DNA of 64,000 bases from Bacilli bacterium (GCA_050948885.1 JBMNER010000002.1:107344-171343); one strand, 5' to 3'. Positions 2,451-53,207 are shown, counted from the stretch's first letter. The notes: a model not told the origin generated them from the letters alone. Numbers and translations: made by a program.

Positions 2451-3413
2451 ATGGATTTAATCTTGTTTTTTATTATTGCGGTCATTACTATAATTCTTAG
2501 TATTAAATTATCCCATTATGCCGATATGTTAGACAAGGGGACCAAGGCGAAAGGTTTTTTTATTGGTGGAGTCTTATTGGCTGGCGTTACTAGTTTACCA
2601 GAGTTGGTCACGACTCTTTCTAGTGTTAGTTTAAATAATCCGGCCTTAGCAATTGGGGATATTATTGGGAGTATAATATATAACTTTATCATTATTGTGG
2701 TCCTTGACTTAATCTTTATACGAAAAAGGTTTATGAATAAAGTCTCTGATAAGTATGTGATTGTTCATTTAATTTTAATTTACATCTTTGTGATTTTAAT
2801 CGCCTATTTTAAAGGCGAATTAATCGGTGGTATATATAATATTGGCCTTCCGACCATCATAATAATTATTTGCTATCTAATTTATCTATTGGTGGTCTCT
2901 CGAACAAAACTATCTACTTCTAAACCAAAAACTTCTAATAATAAACCAGCCATAATAATAAAATTCACTCTTACCTCAATATTAATGGTTATTGTAAGTA
3001 TCCTTTTAACGATTAATGTTAACCAGATATCTATTATTTACTCTAATTTCTCCGCCAGCGTTATTGGGGCTTTTTTACTTGGGATTACCACAAGCCTCCC
3101 CGAGACCGTGTCCGCATATGTCTTAATTCGGATGGGTAGTTATAATTTGGGTTATTCTAACATTGTGGGAAGTAATATGGTCGATTTTTTAATTATCGCC
3201 TTAGCCGATTTTTTTGTGCCAAGTAAAATAATTTATGATTTTTATGATCAGGATACATTACTACTAACATACCTTGGTTTAGCGTTCTGTATTATTTTAA
3301 TCTATCCAATCATTAGGCAACGGAGCAACTTTAAGATAACTTATCTTATACCGTCACTGGTAATTTTGCTTATTTATTTAATGTTTTGGTTTTATTTATT
3401 ACTAGGAAATTAA
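2451..3413 (+). CDS. Ca2+/cation antiporter (CaCA / Na-Ca exchanger family) membrane protein
   Basis: 320 aa polytopic protein carrying two alpha-repeat motifs, G(V/T)TSLPE(L/T)V. Assigned to the family by established knowledge. Confidence 0.7.
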   Translation: MDLILFFIIAVITIILSIKLSHYADMLDKGTKAKGFFIGGVLLAGVTSLPELVTTLSSVSLNNPALAIGDIIGSIIYNFIIIVVLDLIFIRKRFMNKVSDKYVIVHLILIYIFVILIAYFKGELIGGIYNIGLPTIIIIICYLIYLLVVSRTKLSTSKPKTSNNKPAIIIKFTLTSILMVIVSILLTINVNQISIIYSNFSASVIGAFLLGITTSLPETVSAYVLIRMGSYNLGYSNIVGSNMVDFLIIALADFFVPSKIIYDFYDQDTLLLTYLGLAFCIILIYPIIRQRSNFKITYLIPSLVILLIYLMFWFYLLLGN

Positions 3414-6573: not shown

Positions 6574-6913
6574 GGGGCTGACTTGGCTTCGACGGGAACA
6601 ATAGATTTTAAATGGCAAGTCGTAGACATACGTTAAATGTAATCAGTAAATAACTGCAGATAATCAATTTGCATTTGCTGCTTAATTAATTAGTGGCAAG
6701 CTTCTCCTTCCTTTGTCCATTGGGGAAGATAGAGGCTCATATTAATGGACTATATTATGTTTATGTTTAGGAAATATAACGAACCAATACTAAACTAGCT
6801 ATTAAGTAATTTTGTTAGTTAATGCTTAATAGTAAAGTAATAACTAACTAAACTTGTAGAAGTTTAAATATTTATATTTTCGGACATGGGTTCAATTCCC
6901 ATCAGCTCCACCA
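6574..6913 (+). ncRNA. ssrA: tmRNA (SsrA), about 340 nt, predicted tag ending ...ADNQFAFAA
   Basis: 5' end GGGGCTGACTTGGCTTCGACGGG. Tag reading frame gcagataatcaatttgcatttgctgcttaa. tRNA-like 3' end GGACATGGGTTCAATTCCCATCAGCTCCACCA. Directly downstream of smpB. Confidence 0.9.
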
Positions 6914-16685: not shown

Positions 16686-16705
16686 ATATCCGTGTTAAAT
16701 TAATA

Positions 16706-16740
16706 AAAGATTAGTAATCAAATTACTAATCTTTTCTTTT
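16706..16740 (+). terminator. Rho-independent terminator
   Basis: aaagattagtaat caa attactaatcttt tctttt: 13-bp stem plus T-run. Confidence 0.6.
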
Positions 16741-19689: not shown

Positions 19690-21257
<1,568 letters not shown>

Positions 21258-21344
21258 ATGGAGAAAGATATTATTTAATAATAATAAAAAGCTCTTAAAT
21301 TGGAGAAGTTTTGCTTAGTTTTGAGAGATTATCTCTCTAAAATA

Positions 21345-21359
21345 GTTCTTTGAAAACTG
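21345..21359 (+). promoter_or_regulatory. Second boxA-like element in the 16S-23S spacer
   Basis: gttcTTTGAAAACTg. The spacer contains no tRNA. Confidence 0.4.
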
Positions 21360-21439
21360 GATAATGTGTAGTCTTGTTTTTTTTCCGAAACAAGACATCA
21401 AGGTCTCATTAAATTAGGATAGAAATATCAATAATTGGT

Positions 21440-24362
<2,923 letters not shown>

Positions 24363-24422
24363 TACTTATTTAATTTAGTGGACACACATTATCTTGTTTT
24401 CAGAGAATTATTTCTCTATTTA

Positions 24423-24528
24423 TCTTGGTAACCATAGCGAGACGGGTACACCTGTTCCCATACCGAACACAGAAGTTAAGCGTCTCTGCGCCGACGATAG
24501 TGTAAGCGAAAATAGGACGTTGCCAAGA
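24423..24528 (+). rRNA. rrf: 5S ribosomal RNA (about 106 nt)
   Basis: tcttggtaaccatagcgagacgggtacacctgttcccataccgaacacagaagttaagc ... ggacgttgccaaga. Confidence 0.85.
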
Positions 24529-46897: not shown

Positions 46898-47191
46898 TTT
46901 ATCACCGCCACATTATTCAATATACTATAACATTATAAAGTAAATTAATAACGAAAACAATAGTAATGCTGATATTTTGTTAGTCATAAATGTCAGAGTG
47001 TAAACACCAGTAACAGAATAACGGCAAAAAACTTAATATACTTAGTTTAATATGATAAAATTATAATAGACTATGTATTTTGTGTCGTTATATTTTTGCA
47101 ACGGCTATGTTAAAACAAATTATTACTATATTATCTATAAATGATAAAGCGAAGATGGAAATTTTACCACGGCTTTTTTAGGAGGCGGAAA

Positions 47192-49303
47192 ATGTCACTA
47201 TCCCCAAACGAATTATATGCCGAGAAAAAATATTTAGAAAGAGTTTTAGTATTATTAAAACAACAGATTAAGCTTCGCGAGTACAAAATAAATAGTCTCC
47301 ATAAAATGGTTACTAAACATAAAAAATATATGTGGGAAAGCATATCAAGGATAGATACGATAAACATTGCGGTTAATAAAAATATTGTTGAAGTAAATAT
47401 TGGCGTTGGTGATTTGTTTCAAGCAAAGGTTATCCTTTTGAAACAAATGTTAGATAAGCCTTATTTTGGTAGGATTGATTTTCAAGATAAAAATTTTACA
47501 GAACCGGAAAAAATTTATATTGGTTTAACTGGTTTAAGTGACAAATTCACAAACTATATATATGATTGGCGCAGTCCAATAGCGGGTTTATATTATGATT
47601 ATGAATTAGGTAAGGTGAGTTACCAGACACCAAGCGGCATAATTTCCGGTGAAATTAAACTAAAAAGACAATATAAAATAGAAAAAGGAATATTAAAATA
47701 TGCATTTGACAGTTCACTAAATATAAATGATGAAATGTTACAAGATATGTTAGGTAAAAGTACTTCCAATAAAATGAGGCATATAGTAACAACGATTCAA
47801 AAGGAACAAAATAAAATTATAAGAAATACCACTACGAAGATTTTAATTGTTGAAGGGCCGGCTGGGTCGGGTAAAACTTCTATTTCCCTTCATCGCATCG
47901 CTTATCTATTATATAAACATAGAAATGAAAACAACAAATTAACCTCAAATCAAATACTAATATTCTCGCCTAGTAATATATTTAGTGATTATATTGGGGA
48001 TGTTTTACCTAGTCTAGGCGAAGAAAATGTCATTAATACCCTGTTTGCTGATTATATACATAGTTTTATAACAGAGTATAAAAAGATGGAATCTTATTCT
48101 AATTTTATCGAACGTATTTATATTAATGTTGATCAAGATACGAAGGACACAATTATGGTTAAAATGTCTAATAACTTTAAATCTATTATTGATGCGTACA
48201 TTGAAGAAATTAGTAACAAACTAGAATTCTCAGATATTATTATTAAAGATATTGTTGTTTTAAAGAAGGAACAATGTAAAAAACTATATAGTATAAATTA
48301 TAAGATGTTACCACCATATATGCGTTTAGAAAAATTAATTGATTATGGGGCCATGAAATATAGTCATATGCTAGAACGCCCACTAAGAAGAGAAGAAATA
48401 CGGTTAATTATTAGGAGCCAAATTATATATAATAATGATATTAAAGATTTATTAATAAAAATGTATGAAAGCCCGACAATAAAAAAATTAATAGGCCAAA
48501 AATACCCCACAATAAATATCCAAACGTTTTGCGATATTTCTATAGATGGTTTATTAAACACTAAAATTAATTATGAAGATGCGATTATACTTTTATATTT
48601 AAAAGGGAAACTGCAAGGTTTTGTGATAGATAAAACAATTAAGCAGGTAGTTATAGATGAGGCTCAAGATTATAACCATTTACAATTTATAATAATGAGA
48701 AATATATTTCCCAAGGCTCATTTTACTATTTTAGGGGACCCTAATCAAGGTCTTAATCCATTGTTTGAGTATCAGACTTTAAAAGAAATAGAGGCTATTT
48801 TTCTAGATAAGGAAACAGAATGTTTAAAATTATTGTATAGCTATCGTAATAGTTATGAGATTACTCGCTTTTGTAATAATATATTAGATTTAAAAAAAGT
48901 TAATTTAATTAATCGGCATACAGAAGACCCCGTGGTAATAGATACCATCCCCAATTTATGTAATAGTGATTTTTTCCTTCAAGCTATAAATGATAGCTTT
49001 AGCAAAGATTACAACACTACTGCTGTTATTACTAAAAATAAACATCAGATGAGAGAAGTAAAAAAGCGTTTAAAAGCTCTAGGTATTGAATATTATGAGC
49101 ATCTGACTAACGAAGATAATATTAATCATAAAATAATGGTGTTACCAATTTATTTGGCTAAGGGGTTAGAGTTTGATGCGGTTATTGTTTATGATGTAAA
49201 AGAAGATGGTTTTTTGGAGGACAATAAAAAATTATTTTATGTAGCATGTAGTAGGGCTCTTCATAAGTTATATGTTTTAAGCGAAAACAGAATAAAAAAA
49301 TAA
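47192..49303 (+). CDS. helD: UvrD-like helicase HelD (helicase IV, RNA polymerase-associated)
   Basis: ATG at 47192 after RBS AGGAGG. HelD N-terminal motif GRIDF ... YDWRSPIAGLYY, Walker A GPAGSGKTS, IDEAQDY, C-terminal UvrD_C (LAKGLEFDAVIV). Confidence 0.8.
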   Translation: MSLSPNELYAEKKYLERVLVLLKQQIKLREYKINSLHKMVTKHKKYMWESISRIDTINIAVNKNIVEVNIGVGDLFQAKVILLKQMLDKPYFGRIDFQDKNFTEPEKIYIGLTGLSDKFTNYIYDWRSPIAGLYYDYELGKVSYQTPSGIISGEIKLKRQYKIEKGILKYAFDSSLNINDEMLQDMLGKSTSNKMRHIVTTIQKEQNKIIRNTTTKILIVEGPAGSGKTSISLHRIAYLLYKHRNENNKLTSNQILIFSPSNIFSDYIGDVLPSLGEENVINTLFADYIHSFITEYKKMESYSNFIERIYINVDQDTKDTIMVKMSNNFKSIIDAYIEEISNKLEFSDIIIKDIVVLKKEQCKKLYSINYKMLPPYMRLEKLIDYGAMKYSHMLERPLRREEIRLIIRSQIIYNNDIKDLLIKMYESPTIKKLIGQKYPTINIQTFCDISIDGLLNTKINYEDAIILLYLKGKLQGFVIDKTIKQVVIDEAQDYNHLQFIIMRNIFPKAHFTILGDPNQGLNPLFEYQTLKEIEAIFLDKETECLKLLYSYRNSYEITRFCNNILDLKKVNLINRHTEDPVVIDTIPNLCNSDFFLQAINDSFSKDYNTTAVITKNKHQMREVKKRLKALGIEYYEHLTNEDNINHKIMVLPIYLAKGLEFDAVIVYDVKEDGFLEDNKKLFYVACSRALHKLYVLSENRIKK

Positions 49304-49410
49304 GCAAAGTAAGGGTCTTTTAAAATAAAATCTAACCCGATTTTCTAGAAAATTATGAAATTTGGTATTAATTTACTATTAAAATTTAAAATTATGCATA
49401 TTTTTAAGCA

Positions 49411-49500
49411 AGTCGAATATAATATTAGTGTCACAGCAATAATCTATTGCTGTGATAATGGGAACATCCACTGCAAAGTGGATGTTCCCATTATTACATA
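49411..49500 (+). repeat. Copy A of a duplicated ~90-bp element with two perfect hairpins (stem-loop 1 at 49431-49455; stem-loop 2 at 49460-49489 with a GCAA tetraloop); candidate structured RNA
   Basis: gtcgaatataatattagtg TCACAGCAATA atc TATTGCTGTGA taat GGGAACATCCACT gcaa AGTGGATGTTCCC. Confidence 0.8.
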
Positions 49501-49613
49501 TTATTCTAATACTTACTTATATTATTAATTAAAATAAAATCACCGAATTTATTTTTAATACCAATGTCTTTTGAGTAATAAAAAAAATTATAAAAAATGT
49601 ATATTTTTTTATA

Positions 49614-49703
49614 ATGTTGAATATAATATTAATGTCACAGCAATAGGTTATTGCTGTGACAATGGGTATATTCACCGCAAGGTGAATATACCCACTTTTA
49701 TTA
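49614..49703 (+). repeat. Copy B of the same element (stem-loop 1 at 49634-49660; stem-loop 2 at 49664-49693 with a GCAA tetraloop)
   Basis: gttgaatataatattaat GTCACAGCAATA ggt TATTGCTGTGAC aat GGGTATATTCACC gcaa GGTGAATATACCC. Four positions differ from copy A in stem 2, each with a compensating change on the opposite arm. Confidence 0.8.
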
Positions 49704-49832
49704 CTTGACATAGTTTACTTATTTTAGGGCGGTTTTTAGACCGAAGGATTGGCTCTTCCTTTTTTTTTTGTTATAATTTAAATGAGAAACTGTTATCTCA
49801 AACATAAATTAGGACAAGAAAGGGAGATTGCC

Positions 49833-51848
49833 ATGAAGATAAGATTAGTAAATAGATTATTAATTATTGCTTTTTTAATTAATATTTTCCTTATTCCTAC
49901 TAATATATATGCTGAAACTATTTCTCAACCACTCGTTAATGTTACGGCTAATGTTAGGACCGGACCAGGAACAACCCATCCTAATGTTATGGCGGGTGCC
50001 AGGGGAGTTCAACTTTCTGCTGGGCACAAAGTAACTATTCTCGACACCAAAGCGGGGACTGATGGTTATAACTGGTACCATATTCAATTTATCTACGCTG
50101 GTGTCTCTTATCAGGGATATATGCGGAGCGATTTAATTACTATATATAAATACAGTCTTGATAATGATGATGAGTTTGTGGCTACTTCAAAATCAAAGGG
50201 CTTTCCTGATAGCTATTTACCAGGCTTACGGTTTTTACACGCTTTATACCCCAATTGGCAGTTTGAACCTTTAATGACAAATTTAGATTGGCAAAGCACG
50301 GTTAATGCGCAAAGCGCAACTGGTAAAAGCCTTATCTCTTCCTCGCGTGATGTTGCTTATTTTTCTACCGAGCCAGGTGCTTATGATTGGGATAATGATA
50401 GTTGGAAAAAATTTGATAATGGAGATTGGCGGGCTGCTAATAAAGAAGTTGTGGCTTATTATCTTGATCCTAGAAACTTTTTAAATCCTTATAATATTTT
50501 AATGTATGAAGAGCTAAGTTATAACAATAATTATCATACTACCGCTGTGGTACAGAAAATATTGGATGGCACTTTTATGGCTAATACTTATGTTCATGAA
50601 GGTAAATCAAAATCATATGCATCAACTTTTATTGAGGCTGCGGAAAAGACCAAAGCCAGTCCGATTCATTTAGCGTCGAGAGTTAGGCAAGAACAGGGAA
50701 CCAAAGCGGGACCTTTGGTAAGTGGTAATCCCTATCCCGCCTGTGCTTCTTATATTAATACTTATAATTTCTTTAATGTCAATGCTTATGGCAAGAATCT
50801 AGATGAGGTAATATGTAATGGACTGGCCTATGCCTTTAGGGAAGGTATTTTCGCCCGACCTTGGAACAACATTTATAAATCGTTAATGGGGGGGTCAGAG
50901 TTTTTGGCTAGCAGTTATATTAATAAAGGCCAAAATACTATGTATTTACAAAAATTTAATGTTTCCCCTCAAGCCTTTTATGATGTGCATACTCATCAAT
51001 ATATGACTAATATTGAAGCGCCAAAATCAGAAGGCGCAACAGCTTACTCTTCATATAAGGATTATGGCATTTTAGAGCAGCCACTAACTTTTCTTATTCC
51101 TGTTTATGACAATATGCCAGTAGAAACTACTTTACCAACTAAATTAGGTAATCCTAATAACTATTTAAAGGAAATAAAAATAAATAACAAAAGTATTGCG
51201 TCATTCAATCGTACCACCCAAACATATAATATTAGTATTCCGCCCGCTAGTAGCGTCACCATCGCAGCGCCCCCGATAAGTTCAGTAGCCACAGTTTCTG
51301 GAACGGGCTTAATAAATATGCCGGATACTAATAATCGGGTTGAGATTAAAGTTAAAGCTCAAAATGGAAATATTAGAACTTATACCTTAAATATAACTAA
51401 AGATGATAGTATTCCGATTACTTCTGAGGAAATTCTTTATAATTTAAAATTAAACATTAACGATAATTTTATAAGTGGCATTAATCTACATACTAGTCCA
51501 CAACAGCTTAAAGCCAAAATAGAGGGAACTAATATCGTTGTGTCAGCTGCGGTTAAAGATTATAATGGTAATAGTAAAGTATCCGGGAAAATAGCGACAG
51601 GCGATACTATTACTATTAATAACAGTAAGGAAGAAACTACTTATACCGTTATAATGCCAGGGGACGTTAATGGTGATGGCGAGATAACTATTCACGATTT
51701 ATTAATAATTCAAAAACATTTATTAGGTTTAAATAATTTAAAAGGAGCTTTTGTTAAAGCAGGGGACATAAATAAAGCTGGGACCGTTACCATTCGCGAC
51801 TTATTAAAGGTTCAAAAACATATATTAGGTGTATCACTTATCTATTAA
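49833..51848 (+). CDS. Secreted modular protein: signal peptide, bacterial SH3 (SH3b), GH73-like N-acetylglucosaminidase-type domain, cadherin-like beta-sandwich, C-terminal type-I dockerin
   Basis: ATG at 49833 after RBS AAGGGAG. Signal peptide. SH3b (VRTGPGTTHP ... GYNWYHIQF). GH73-like catalytic stretch (PIHLASRVRQEQG). Dockerin with two Ca-binding repeats (DVNGDGEITIHDLLIIQKHLLG and AGDINKAGTVTIRDLLKVQKHILG). Confidence 0.7.
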   Translation: MKIRLVNRLLIIAFLINIFLIPTNIYAETISQPLVNVTANVRTGPGTTHPNVMAGARGVQLSAGHKVTILDTKAGTDGYNWYHIQFIYAGVSYQGYMRSDLITIYKYSLDNDDEFVATSKSKGFPDSYLPGLRFLHALYPNWQFEPLMTNLDWQSTVNAQSATGKSLISSSRDVAYFSTEPGAYDWDNDSWKKFDNGDWRAANKEVVAYYLDPRNFLNPYNILMYEELSYNNNYHTTAVVQKILDGTFMANTYVHEGKSKSYASTFIEAAEKTKASPIHLASRVRQEQGTKAGPLVSGNPYPACASYINTYNFFNVNAYGKNLDEVICNGLAYAFREGIFARPWNNIYKSLMGGSEFLASSYINKGQNTMYLQKFNVSPQAFYDVHTHQYMTNIEAPKSEGATAYSSYKDYGILEQPLTFLIPVYDNMPVETTLPTKLGNPNNYLKEIKINNKSIASFNRTTQTYNISIPPASSVTIAAPPISSVATVSGTGLINMPDTNNRVEIKVKAQNGNIRTYTLNITKDDSIPITSEEILYNLKLNINDNFISGINLHTSPQQLKAKIEGTNIVVSAAVKDYNGNSKVSGKIATGDTITINNSKEETTYTVIMPGDVNGDGEITIHDLLIIQKHLLGLNNLKGAFVKAGDINKAGTVTIRDLLKVQKHILGVSLIY

Positions 51849-51860
51849 ACGGAGGTTTTT

Positions 51861-53207
51861 ATGAAGGAAATAAAAAAACTTATTTTTCTGGGTACCTGTT
51901 TTATATTTTTTAGTATTTTAAATACTATTAATATAAACGCTCTATCAGGCGTAATTAATACTAGGGCATCATTAACTAATGTGGTAGTAGGTAATAATGT
52001 TAATGTAACAGTGACTGTTTCTAGCTCTGCTCCTATTGGGGCCTGGGAATTTGTTCTTAACTATGATAGTTCTAAATTAAGGTTAGTTAGTTCGACCCCA
52101 GCTACATATATAGTTGGTTATGGGGACGGCGTTAAAAAAACGGCGTCTTATACTTATACTTTTAAGACTCTTACAGCAGGTAGCACATCGGTAAGTGTGA
52201 AAAACGCCTTAGTGTTAGACTTTAATACTGAGGCTAAACTAGCCCTTAGTACCTCTCCGGCGAATATTAACATTGTTAAACCAACCATTACGGTGAAATC
52301 TTCTAATGCCTACTTATCAGACTTAACTGTTTCCGCCGGTACATTAGACCCGTTATTTAATAAGAAAACAACGGAATATAATGTTAGTATTGATGAATTG
52401 ATTGATAAATTAACCATTAAAGCTACTCCTGAAGATAGTAAAGCTAGTATCCTTGGTGATGGCGAGGTAGTGCTTAGTGAAGGCAAAAACACTTTTGAAG
52501 TAAAAGTAACGGCCGAAGATGGTAAAACGCAAATTTATACTATTAATATTGATGTTTTTGATAATAATCCTATTAATGTTACTATTGGCCCTAAAAAATA
52601 TACCGTGATTAAAAAGGGTTCTGTTATCGATATTCCAGATAATTATCGAGAAACCATTATTCCAATTCATGCGCTTGATGTAGTGGCTTATACCAATGAA
52701 ATAACAAAGTTATGTTTGGTGCCTTTAAAAGATGAACAAGGAAAGATTAGTCTGTTTATTTATAATGCGAATAAAGAGACATATATTCCGTATCATGAGT
52801 TTTCAACGGGCATATTAAGATTATATATTGTTGAAAACCCAAAAGGTATTACAATACCAAGAAATTACCGCCCAACATCTATTACTATTAACGATGTAAA
52901 GTTAAAAGCTTGGCAATCAGGTGAAGGTAATGCTCGGGATTTCTATCTTATTTATGGCATGAATGTTAATACTGGTCAATATAATTTTTATCGTTATGAT
53001 AAAGTGGAGGAAACATTTCAGCGTTTTATTAATAAGCAACAAAAATCTTACCAAGATATCATCCAGGAATATTTTATCCCTGTAATTATTATTTTGTTTG
53101 TTCTATTTAGTTTAATAGTAATAATTATTATTCAAGGGATAAAAATAAAAAAACTACGCCGATCGTCAATAAAAGCGAAAAAGATACCACCCATGGCTCA
53201 ATTATAA
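51861..53207 (+). CDS. Membrane-anchored cohesin-domain protein (signal peptide, cohesin-like module, cadherin-like beta-sandwich, C-terminal TM anchor with basic tail)
   Basis: Cohesin-like pattern ASLTNVVVGNNVNVTVTVSSSAPIGAWEFVLNYDSSKLRLVSS (compare the cohesin consensus ...G..V.VPV......I....F.L.YD...L...). C-terminal TM (IPVIIILFVLFSLIVIIII) plus KIKKLRR. Confidence 0.6.
   Translation: MKEIKKLIFLGTCFIFFSILNTININALSGVINTRASLTNVVVGNNVNVTVTVSSSAPIGAWEFVLNYDSSKLRLVSSTPATYIVGYGDGVKKTASYTYTFKTLTAGSTSVSVKNALVLDFNTEAKLALSTSPANINIVKPTITVKSSNAYLSDLTVSAGTLDPLFNKKTTEYNVSIDELIDKLTIKATPEDSKASILGDGEVVLSEGKNTFEVKVTAEDGKTQIYTINIDVFDNNPINVTIGPKKYTVIKKGSVIDIPDNYRETIIPIHALDVVAYTNEITKLCLVPLKDEQGKISLFIYNANKETYIPYHEFSTGILRLYIVENPKGITIPRNYRPTSITINDVKLKAWQSGEGNARDFYLIYGMNVNTGQYNFYRYDKVEETFQRFINKQQKSYQDIIQEYFIPVIIILFVLFSLIVIIIIQGIKIKKLRRSSIKAKKIPPMAQL

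Follow-up and report, generated by a model that had tools for sequence, protein, structure and literature searches.

A tandem pair of two-hairpin units beside helD in an uncultured Bacilli bacterium, candidate genes for small hairpin RNAs

PrrF1/PrrF2 and OmrA/OmrB are reportedly multicopy sRNA genes arranged in tandem. The LhrC1-5 genes of Listeria monocytogenes are tandem paralogous sRNA genes as well, with a 5' hairpin and a terminator hairpin, and they act through CU-rich motifs in loops or in a single-stranded stretch (PMC4132741). A second system with two hairpins is known from phage HK022, whose putL and putR are ~70-nt nascent antiterminator RNAs. They consist of two stem-loops, lie just downstream of a promoter and act on the E. 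coli RNA polymerase (PMC9378689). Hairpins can also be reshaped at the level of DNA. Template switching in quasipalindromes produces spacer inversion together with multi-base 'compensatory' changes in one step (PMC8794818, PMC8604942, PMC7202029).

Here we analyse a duplicated two-hairpin element from an uncultured Bacilli bacterium known from MAGs. The stretch of DNA examined, called the window below, is 64 kb long. The element resembles the LhrC genes in that paralogous small units stand side by side in one intergenic region, next to envelope-related genes. The LhrC layout of an own promoter, a 5' stem-loop and a terminator stem-loop for each gene appears to be shared, as predicted here from sequence. 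The units differ from LhrC in their loops, which are 3 and 4 nt long and carry no such motif. A UCCC motif of the LhrC type was not found in loops or single strands, and CCC occurs only within the hairpin 2 stem. Unlike in LhrC, the conserved sequence lies inside perfect stems. ANTAR targets are another class with two short hairpins, capped by hexaloops with A1 and G4; this class was rejected on loop size. As far as its sequence tells, the element is a real, constrained, species-restricted tandem element that may act as RNA or as DNA.

Two conserved units between helD and a surface-protein operon

The window is chromosomal and contains an rRNA operon and tmRNA. Its G+C content is 26-35% outside the rRNA genes, and GC skew across the window shows no change at the element. 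The pair of units sits in the gap between helD and a dockerin/cohesin operon. This gap runs from the helD stop at 49303 to the operon ATG at 49833, and at 529 bp it is wider than the 480 bp given in the original prediction. The upstream gene is a true helD, scoring 496 bits against the HelD_BACSU equivalog cut-off of 419. HelD is an RNA-polymerase recycling factor. Its gene lies on the same strand as the units and is preceded by a divergent LytR-CpsA-Psr/PASTA gene. Downstream, the operon includes genes for a dockerin-bearing protein that has a glucosaminidase-like domain and for a cohesin/cadherin-like protein, Alg14/glycosyltransferase genes and others; surface proteins are among the products. 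In relatives, the neighbour of the operon is either LytR or the ribosomal S10 operon, and neither helD nor a two-hairpin unit is there; helD and the units occur together only in this species. helD plus the units is a species-specific insertion between LytR and the operon.

Two families of repeats define the units. The first is a 96-nt direct repeat, with copy A at 49401-49496 and copy B at 49605-49700, 79% identical. The second is a 25-nt repeat on its upstream side (49381-49405 and 49584-49608). The homologous unit is ~115 bp and begins about 35 nt upstream of a TATAAT box. The duplication put forward in the original prediction, as ~90-bp copies about 200 bp apart, is therefore real and has a spacing of 204 bp, with the unit being longer than proposed. 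Each unit has the same order of parts: an A/T-rich stretch, the sequence ATG(C/T)ATATTTTT, TATAAT, hairpin 1, a single A, hairpin 2 and a U-rich tail (Table 1). TATAAT follows the conserved stretch after 17 or 18 nt, and the foot of hairpin 1 comes 5 nt past TATAAT. The block GAATATAATATTA(G/A)TGTCACAGCAATA occurs exactly twice in the 64 kb and in none of 100 shuffles. The same holds for the hairpin 1 palindrome, with two exact occurrences in the window and none in 100 shuffles.

Table 1. Features of the two units, with positions counted from the first nucleotide of the window
Feature	Position	Strand	Basis
Unit A, whole conserved block: promoter-like region, hairpin 1, hairpin 2, U-rich tail	49381..49498	+	repeats, segment identity, covariance-model score 109 bits
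Unit B, whole conserved block	49584..49702	+	repeats, segment identity, covariance-model score 111 bits
Unit A -35-like hexamer TGCATA, 3/6 to TTGACA, 17 nt upstream of -10	49395..49400	+	sequence; conserved ATG(C/T)ATATTTTT
Unit B -35-like hexamer TGTATA, 18 nt upstream of -10	49598..49603	+	sequence
Unit A perfect -10 TATAAT in invariant GAATATAATATTA block	49418..49423	+	sequence
Unit B perfect -10 TATAAT	49622..49627	+	sequence
Unit A hairpin 1: 13 pairs, one G-U, loop AUC	49429..49457	+	repeats, pair count, folding
Unit B hairpin 1: 13 perfect pairs, loop GGU	49633..49661	+	repeats, pair count
Unit A hairpin 2: 14 perfect pairs, loop GCAA, U-rich tail to about 49505	49459..49490	+	pair count, folding, terminator scan
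Unit B hairpin 2: 14 perfect pairs, loop GCAA	49663..49694	+	pair count, terminator scan

The full 209-bp periods were aligned and identity between A and B was taken segment by segment. It is 0.76 in the promoter-like block, 0.86 in hairpin 1 and 0.75 in hairpin 2. In the flanks (before 49381/49584 and after about 49500/49704) it falls to 0.51-0.59, and shuffled sequence gives about 0.5-0.6. By this comparison the duplication is old, with a ~115-bp core that was held while its flanks decayed. The conservation of the core above its flanks points to constraint, and we regard it as the strongest argument for function. Eight contigs of the same species from different samples leave both units unchanged except for A49490G, the single intergenic polymorphism. 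These strain contigs are uninformative because they are 99.6-100% identical over 5-10 kb.

We searched for relatives of the units at several scales. The best match in Rfam 15 was mir-1000 at 26 bits against a threshold of 50, and an E-value scan of 1 kb returned hairpin look-alikes only. A gathering scan of the whole window found rRNAs and tmRNA only, which agrees with the proposal that the element matches no Rfam family. With filters switched off, a covariance model built from the two copies detected no further copy in the 64-kb window or in the 10 kb past its right end. Nor did it find a copy at three loci with homologues of the dockerin operon or at two with homologues of helD. The nearest helD homologue is 48-49% identical and the nearest homologue of the dockerin protein 56%, with the compared operon homologues at 47-56%; the element is absent beside these nearest helD and dockerin-operon homologues. 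The exact hairpin 1 pattern, scanned in one genome for each of 185,579 species, matched at 12 loci, all by chance. One of these chance matches is a terminator of Clostridium lacusfryxellense. JGI metagenome contigs gave six chance matches to the same pattern. Pattern scans of viral contigs likewise gave only chance matches, and none of the 32 matches from one viral scan fit the covariance model. A blastn search against phages and plasmids returned nothing. The check for further copies that had been proposed with the original prediction was thus negative in every collection, and the family consists of these two sequences.

Perfect stems, compensated changes and the palindrome readings

The claims that each copy forms two hairpins, that four pair changes are compensated and that GCAA is constant were all confirmed by counting pairs. 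In hairpin 1, 12 of the 13 pairs are identical between A and B, and the remaining one is G-U in A and G-C in B. Hairpin 2 has 4 of its 14 pairs changed on both sides and none broken (A-U to U-A, C-G to U-A twice, and U-A to C-G). Every aligned cell of the two-sequence alignment is a standard pair, and shifting the partners by 1-3 columns destroys the pairing. If eight random substitutions fall in 28 stem positions, they hit four pairs and restore complementarity with P of about 4e-6. The same pair-conservation values, taken from an alignment of two sequences only, were reached by 19 of 500 shuffles. Folding gives z-scores of -8.3 to -12 against shuffles, equally on both strands. A count over 536 kb of other DNA gave 64 perfect hairpins of at least 10 bp, no two of them adjacent. 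Hairpin 2 of unit A can be extended to 18 pairs (49455-49494), an extension that would take in the final 3 nt of hairpin 1 (49455-49457). MFE folds suggested a three-way junction held by a closing stem, which was rejected since the closing pairs differ between the copies.

Hairpin 1 is more conserved than hairpin 2, with 0-1 of 13 against 4 of 14 pairs changed, a difference that is statistically marginal. There are hints that the + strand is the relevant one. These are the G-U pair in hairpin 1 of unit A, the GNRA loop and the strain polymorphism A49490G, which turns the closing U-A of unit A hairpin 2 into U.G and so keeps the pair. Two of two one-sided changes are tolerated on the + strand (P = 0.25).

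The original prediction took this pattern as selection on RNA structure, a view that stands in part. The hairpins, the compensated changes and the constraint are all present, but the comparison holds two sequences only and template switching gives the same changes. The compensated pairs are not proof of RNA selection because template switching also yields them, along with an inverted loop. Read as sequence, the four compensated pairs show that a palindrome was maintained, not that RNA was the selected molecule. An inverted loop is present as well. Hairpin 1 of B differs from hairpin 1 of A at four positions when the two are aligned directly and at two when B is compared with the reverse complement of A. 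The three loop differences in hairpin 1 are better read as a loop inversion plus one change.

These features invite a reading in which the units have no function. They would go back to a tandem duplication of long ago, or to a mobile palindromic repeat now decayed, and template switching (quasipalindrome correction) would keep the palindromes perfect. Between A and B the hairpin 1 loop is inverted, a known footprint of the process (PMC8794818, PMC8604942). Like template-switched quasipalindromes, the units also combine perfect stems with multi-base compensated changes, one of which is a double transversion from A-U to U-A with no wobble intermediate. Confinement of the element to one species is in keeping with this reading. 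We nevertheless judge it unlikely. Template switching restores pairing; it does not explain why unpaired and arm sequences of 13 to 27 nt are identical despite flanks at the random level, or why the GCAA loop stayed constant while eight stem bases changed. Against a mobile repeat, neither terminal inverted repeats nor target duplications were seen at the units, and dispersed copies are lacking: the 64 kb plus 10 kb hold two adjacent copies only, short of what defines dispersed repeats of the MITE, REP or BOX kind.

The palindromes could instead be bound as DNA by protein, a reading we consider rather unlikely. Hairpin 1 (TGTCACAGCAATA-N3-TATTGCTGTGACA) would be a dyad site for a dimeric regulator or recombinase. 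In one variant of this reading it would serve as an operator that overlies the +1 belonging to the TATAAT box; in another, the two sites, acting as a pair, would form a DNA loop ahead of the surface operon. Neither of the 13-nt arms differs between the copies while the central 3 bp vary freely, as is usual for half-sites around an uncontacted spacer. This is the pattern of dyad operators of dimeric repressors, and overlap with the predicted +1 is a further likeness. Such a site works in either orientation, and hairpin 1 of B is that of A inverted with two differences. The four hairpins are perfectly Watson-Crick bar one pair, which is more typical of DNA palindromes than of RNA stems. Both units have a third palindrome, made of A and T only, across the -35-like region; in unit B this palindrome (49587-49615) is perfect and holds the -35-like hexamer in its loop. 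The parallel with dyad operators fails on hairpin 2, whose sequence has changed although its palindrome is still perfect and its loop conserved. At 13 bp, a half-site would also be unusually long, and the excess conservation of hairpin 1 over hairpin 2, being weak in statistical terms, adds little. No regulator or recombinase gene was found within about 10 kb of the units, and the 64-kb window yielded no targets or further half-sites of the hairpin 1 arms. CRP-like, Fur-like and WalR-like sites were weighed by eye as readings of the palindromes and dropped, as they are not conserved between the copies.

The two copies of hairpin 1 can also be seen as 27-nt inverted repeats, 96% complementary, which flank 179 bp containing the promoter-like box of unit B. 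In this form they would be the ends of an inverton or of a deletable switch. The operon downstream encodes surface proteins, and the layout is that of phase-variable invertons found ahead of surface operons. All eight strain contigs have the same orientation and both units, however, and a nearby recombinase gene is missing. The 96-nt units as a whole are direct repeats, for which an inverton has no need. An invertible or deletable switch at this locus is accordingly very improbable.

Promoter-like and terminator-like signals

Each copy had been proposed to be its own transcription unit, which holds up on one count and falls short on another. In its favour, the 13-nt invariant block GAATATAATATTA, found only twice in the 64 kb, holds a perfect TATAAT, and a start would fall at the base of hairpin 1. 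Assuming the customary 7-nt spacing, we infer starts at G49430 in A and G49634 in B, the second base of hairpin 1. Against it, the -35 hexamer matches at three of six positions. The promoter scan, which requires at least 4 matches per hexamer, makes no call. Over both hexamers the match is 9/12 (6/6 at -10 and 3/6 at -35), and the units lack an extended -10; the sigma-70-type criterion used was a spacing of 16-18 nt and at least 9/12. The promoters of tmRNA, rRNA and the dockerin operon in the same genome have good -35 boxes. A sigmaF/sigmaG-like reading of the region, G(C/T)ATA-17/18-TATAATA, was uninformative, with 3 matches in the window against 1.3 expected.

Hairpin 2 and its U-rich tail fit the pattern of intrinsic terminators, in which a G+C-containing stem is followed by a U-rich tract. 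The terminator scan, a pattern match only, calls hairpin 2 of both units terminator-like, and five such sites lie in the region, where 0.2 would be expected. In unit B the tail, CUUUUAUUA / CTTTTATTA (49695-49703), is identical to that of a typical genome terminator at 16705-16735; the tail of unit A is only moderately U-rich. The usual terminators of this genome have A-tract/T-tract stems, which neither hairpin 2 has. Compared with them, the hairpins here come in pairs, have G+C-richer stems and follow a conserved promoter-like block.

The hairpin pairs may serve helD itself, as a cis-acting 3' module that stops transcription, protects the 3' end and insulates the operon, with unit B as a back-up. 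Lacking a terminator of its own, helD would give transcripts that extend into unit A. The terminator scan found no terminator-like site between the helD stop and unit A, and the sequence at 49296-49360 folds no better than shuffles. The calls at hairpin 2, the strand shared with helD and the restriction of helD plus units to this one species, with the relatives' operon abutting LytR or the S10 operon, all sit well with such a module. It would, however, assign no role to the invariant GAATATAATATTA block, the conserved upstream stretch or hairpin 1. In two of eight strain contigs helD is frameshifted while the units are unchanged, an observation that carries little weight because the strains are too close. 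On balance we think a helD module fairly unlikely.

The dockerin/cohesin operon has its own promoter. The promoter scan calls TTGGCT-17-TATAAT with an upstream TG at 49749-49777. Its -10 region TTATAATTTAA recurs directly upstream of the operon homologue with 56% identity, and a variant, TATAATTTAA, lies directly upstream of the homologue with 50% identity; no clear match was found upstream of the homologue with 47% identity. Because the operon has this promoter, and relatives without the element share it, the element is not the operon's leader. The connection drawn earlier between the element and the operon thus reduces to position. A 5-bp hairpin followed by T10 at 49735-49760 had been offered as a weak terminator. 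Its fold is no more stable than that of shuffled sequence (z = -1.25), and it overlies the operon promoter at the -35 hexamer and spacer, so it is unlikely to be a terminator. Beyond this site, the gap, the unit length and the reading of the hairpin 1 loop, the sequence was described correctly in the original prediction.

The operon promoter also bears on a comparison with put. Stem-loops in nascent RNA from the units could bind the transcribing RNA polymerase, making it resist pausing and termination and so driving the downstream operon. Like put, as far as architecture can be compared by description, the units would give ~70 nt with two stem-loops meeting at a junction (helices one base apart), just downstream of a promoter, in two related copies per genome (PMC9378689). 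The stems are where the likeness ends. Those of put have bulges, non-canonical pairs, a triplex and a G-A platform that form the interface with the polymerase, binding the beta' zinc-binding domain, and those of the units are perfect. As a phage element, put acts on the E. coli enzyme; the context here is not a prophage and offers no evident target of antitermination. Hairpin 2 is itself terminator-like, and the operon has a promoter to itself. Action of this kind therefore seems highly unlikely.

Small peptides were considered as a last product of the units. One reading frame runs open across the two copies (..EYNISVTAIIYCCDNGNIHCKVDVP.. for A, ..EYNINVTAIGYCCDNGYIHRKVNIP.. for B), and in unit A a hydrophobic 26-aa ORF (49452-49532) starts at the 3' end of hairpin 1. 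Relatives carry a cluster for a Cys-peptide (RiPP-like) downstream of helD. The units nonetheless lack a Shine-Dalgarno sequence and a shared start codon, and the unit B ATG has lost its frame through a 1-nt indel. Most differences between A and B are amino-acid changes, only seven codons of the hydrophobic ORF remain in unit B, and the motif, being palindromic, appears on both strands. There is no resemblance to the precursor peptides of relatives. The peptide readings fail on start codons, ribosome-binding sites and frame; we rejected them and see almost no chance that they are right.

Two candidate hairpin RNA genes

Our preferred reading, held tentatively, is that each unit is an independently transcribed RNA of ~70 nt with a hairpin at its 5' end and a terminator hairpin at its 3' end. 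The pair would then be a candidate orphan pair of hairpin sRNA genes, and the idea of a structured RNA is plausible and partly supported. The conserved block, from ~35 nt before TATAAT to just past the tail of hairpin 2, looks like the footprint expected from promoter to terminator. Among the readings considered, that of two sRNA genes is the simplest that gives every conserved segment a role.

Each unit would be a small self-contained transcription unit on the + strand. Its promoter would comprise the A/T-rich upstream region, the weak -35 TG[C/T]ATA and the perfect TATAAT. Transcription would start at the predicted G in either unit, so that the RNA begins flush with a stem, and the ~70-nt product would fold into perfect helices of 13 and 14 bp with a single A between them. 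Helix 2, with its GNRA loop and U-rich tail, would end transcription and protect the 3' end. Stem-loops at the 5' terminus of a transcript block decay that depends on the 5' end. Helix 1, the part with the conserved sequence, would stand flush at the 5' end in the manner of such stabilisers. A protein may then be its target, with the RNA as a highly stable, double-stranded ligand or decoy. Transcripts that read through would carry the same 5' structure towards the dockerin/cohesin operon. Classical seed pairing with mRNA is unlikely because only about 10 nt are unpaired. Since so little is unpaired and the loops are not the conserved part, we infer that any action would go through the helices and protein binding.

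Our confidence in this reading is not higher because the -35 is poor, the hairpins are unlike the terminators of the genome, the stems are perfect and the loop of hairpin 1 is inverted. It is also unusual for regulatory sRNAs that the conserved sequence lies in stems and not in loops.

A bolder version of the RNA reading, which we hold to be improbable, makes the units an undescribed 'dumbbell' RNA. Two perfect helices that can stack coaxially, capped by a triloop and a GNRA loop, would leave almost no single strand. Such an RNA might act through its helical surface, either on polymerase in the manner of put or as a decoy for a protein that binds dsRNA or DNA, with its tandem genes beside helD.

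For genome scans the element carries a caution. Covariation between two copies in perfect palindromes cannot separate selection on RNA from template switching, and here the inverted loop, a footprint of template switching, stands beside real signs of constraint. Barring expression or more members of the family, the wider importance of the element is limited, since it is restricted to a single species and is not linked to a phenotype. If the units are transcribed, they would be an orphan, lineage-specific pair of very stable small RNAs in a poorly known lineage of uncultured Bacilli.

Promoter-like motifs and palindromes of the two units

The tmRNA and the complete 16S-23S-5S rRNA operon in the window are preceded by TTTACA-17-TATAAT with a TG and TTGACA-17-TATATT, respectively. 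Promoters of this form show that the organism uses canonical sigma-A promoters. Units A and B, the two copies of the two-hairpin element between helD and the dockerin/cohesin operon, carry G(C/T)ATA and TATAATA spaced by 17 or 18 nt, an arrangement that we take to resemble forespore sigmaF/sigmaG-type promoters. With 3 occurrences in the window where 1.3 are expected, this likeness is uninformative.

In both units an AT-only palindrome spans the -35-like region, and each unit therefore has three palindromes in series. Separately, 37 nt past the helD stop (49340-49353) comes ATTTTCTAGAAAAT, a 14-bp palindrome without mismatches that is presumably similar to a CodY box with an additional base at its centre.

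Coordinates of features in the window and in related loci
Feature	Position	Detail
tmRNA	window 6574-6913	
16S-23S-5S rRNA operon	window 19690-24528	complete
G(C/T)ATA, 17 or 18 nt, TATAATA	window 49396-49424 and 49599-49627	
AT-only palindrome, unit A	window 49386-49407	14 nt, 93%
AT-only palindrome, unit B	window 49587-49615	11 perfect pairs, 7-nt loop
Split helD	L017 343-2471; L025 1343-3471	same species; window equivalent 47141-49303
37-aa Cys-containing peptides	L034 5120-5233 and L035 about 3295-3405	MKKVYVKPEVKIIDLRKDFSLFSGCNTYNSDADSCYS and MKKSYVKPLLKIFDLRKDFPLFVGCNSYSSDDDSCYC
Dockerin/cohesin operon promoter region	window 49749-49832; L027 420-484; L028 3100-3169	

helD in strains and relatives

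In two of the eight same-species strain contigs (L017 and L025), gene calling divides helD into ORFs of 117 aa and 562 aa, so that some members of the population may carry a frameshifted copy. The units downstream of the split gene are unchanged in both contigs.

Two loci of relatives with helD homologues (L034 and L035) contain genes for 37-aa Cys-containing peptides. In each, the peptide gene overlaps the 3' end of the helD homologue, and downstream of it come a hairpin and a gene of PqqD-like type. The L035 contig ends just past this last gene, whereas the L034 locus continues with two genes for radical-SAM proteins and one for an S24 peptidase. These genes of the relatives are a RiPP-like cluster tied to helD, and this cluster is absent from the window.

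The dockerin/cohesin operon

The operon promoter, with the -10 region TTATAATTTAA (TATAATTTAA in L028), is kept in homologous operons of relatives (L027 and L028) at protein identities of 56% and 50%. Its neighbours vary while the promoter stays: helD adjoins the operon in the window, and relatives have either the S10 ribosomal operon or LytR-PASTA there. Within 49833-53207 the window encodes a protein that combines a dockerin, a SagB-like glucosaminidase region and an SH3 domain, and its partner is a cohesin/cadherin-like protein. Such a pairing in a Bacilli MAG makes a cell-wall hydrolase anchored through cohesin and dockerin more likely than a cellulosome.
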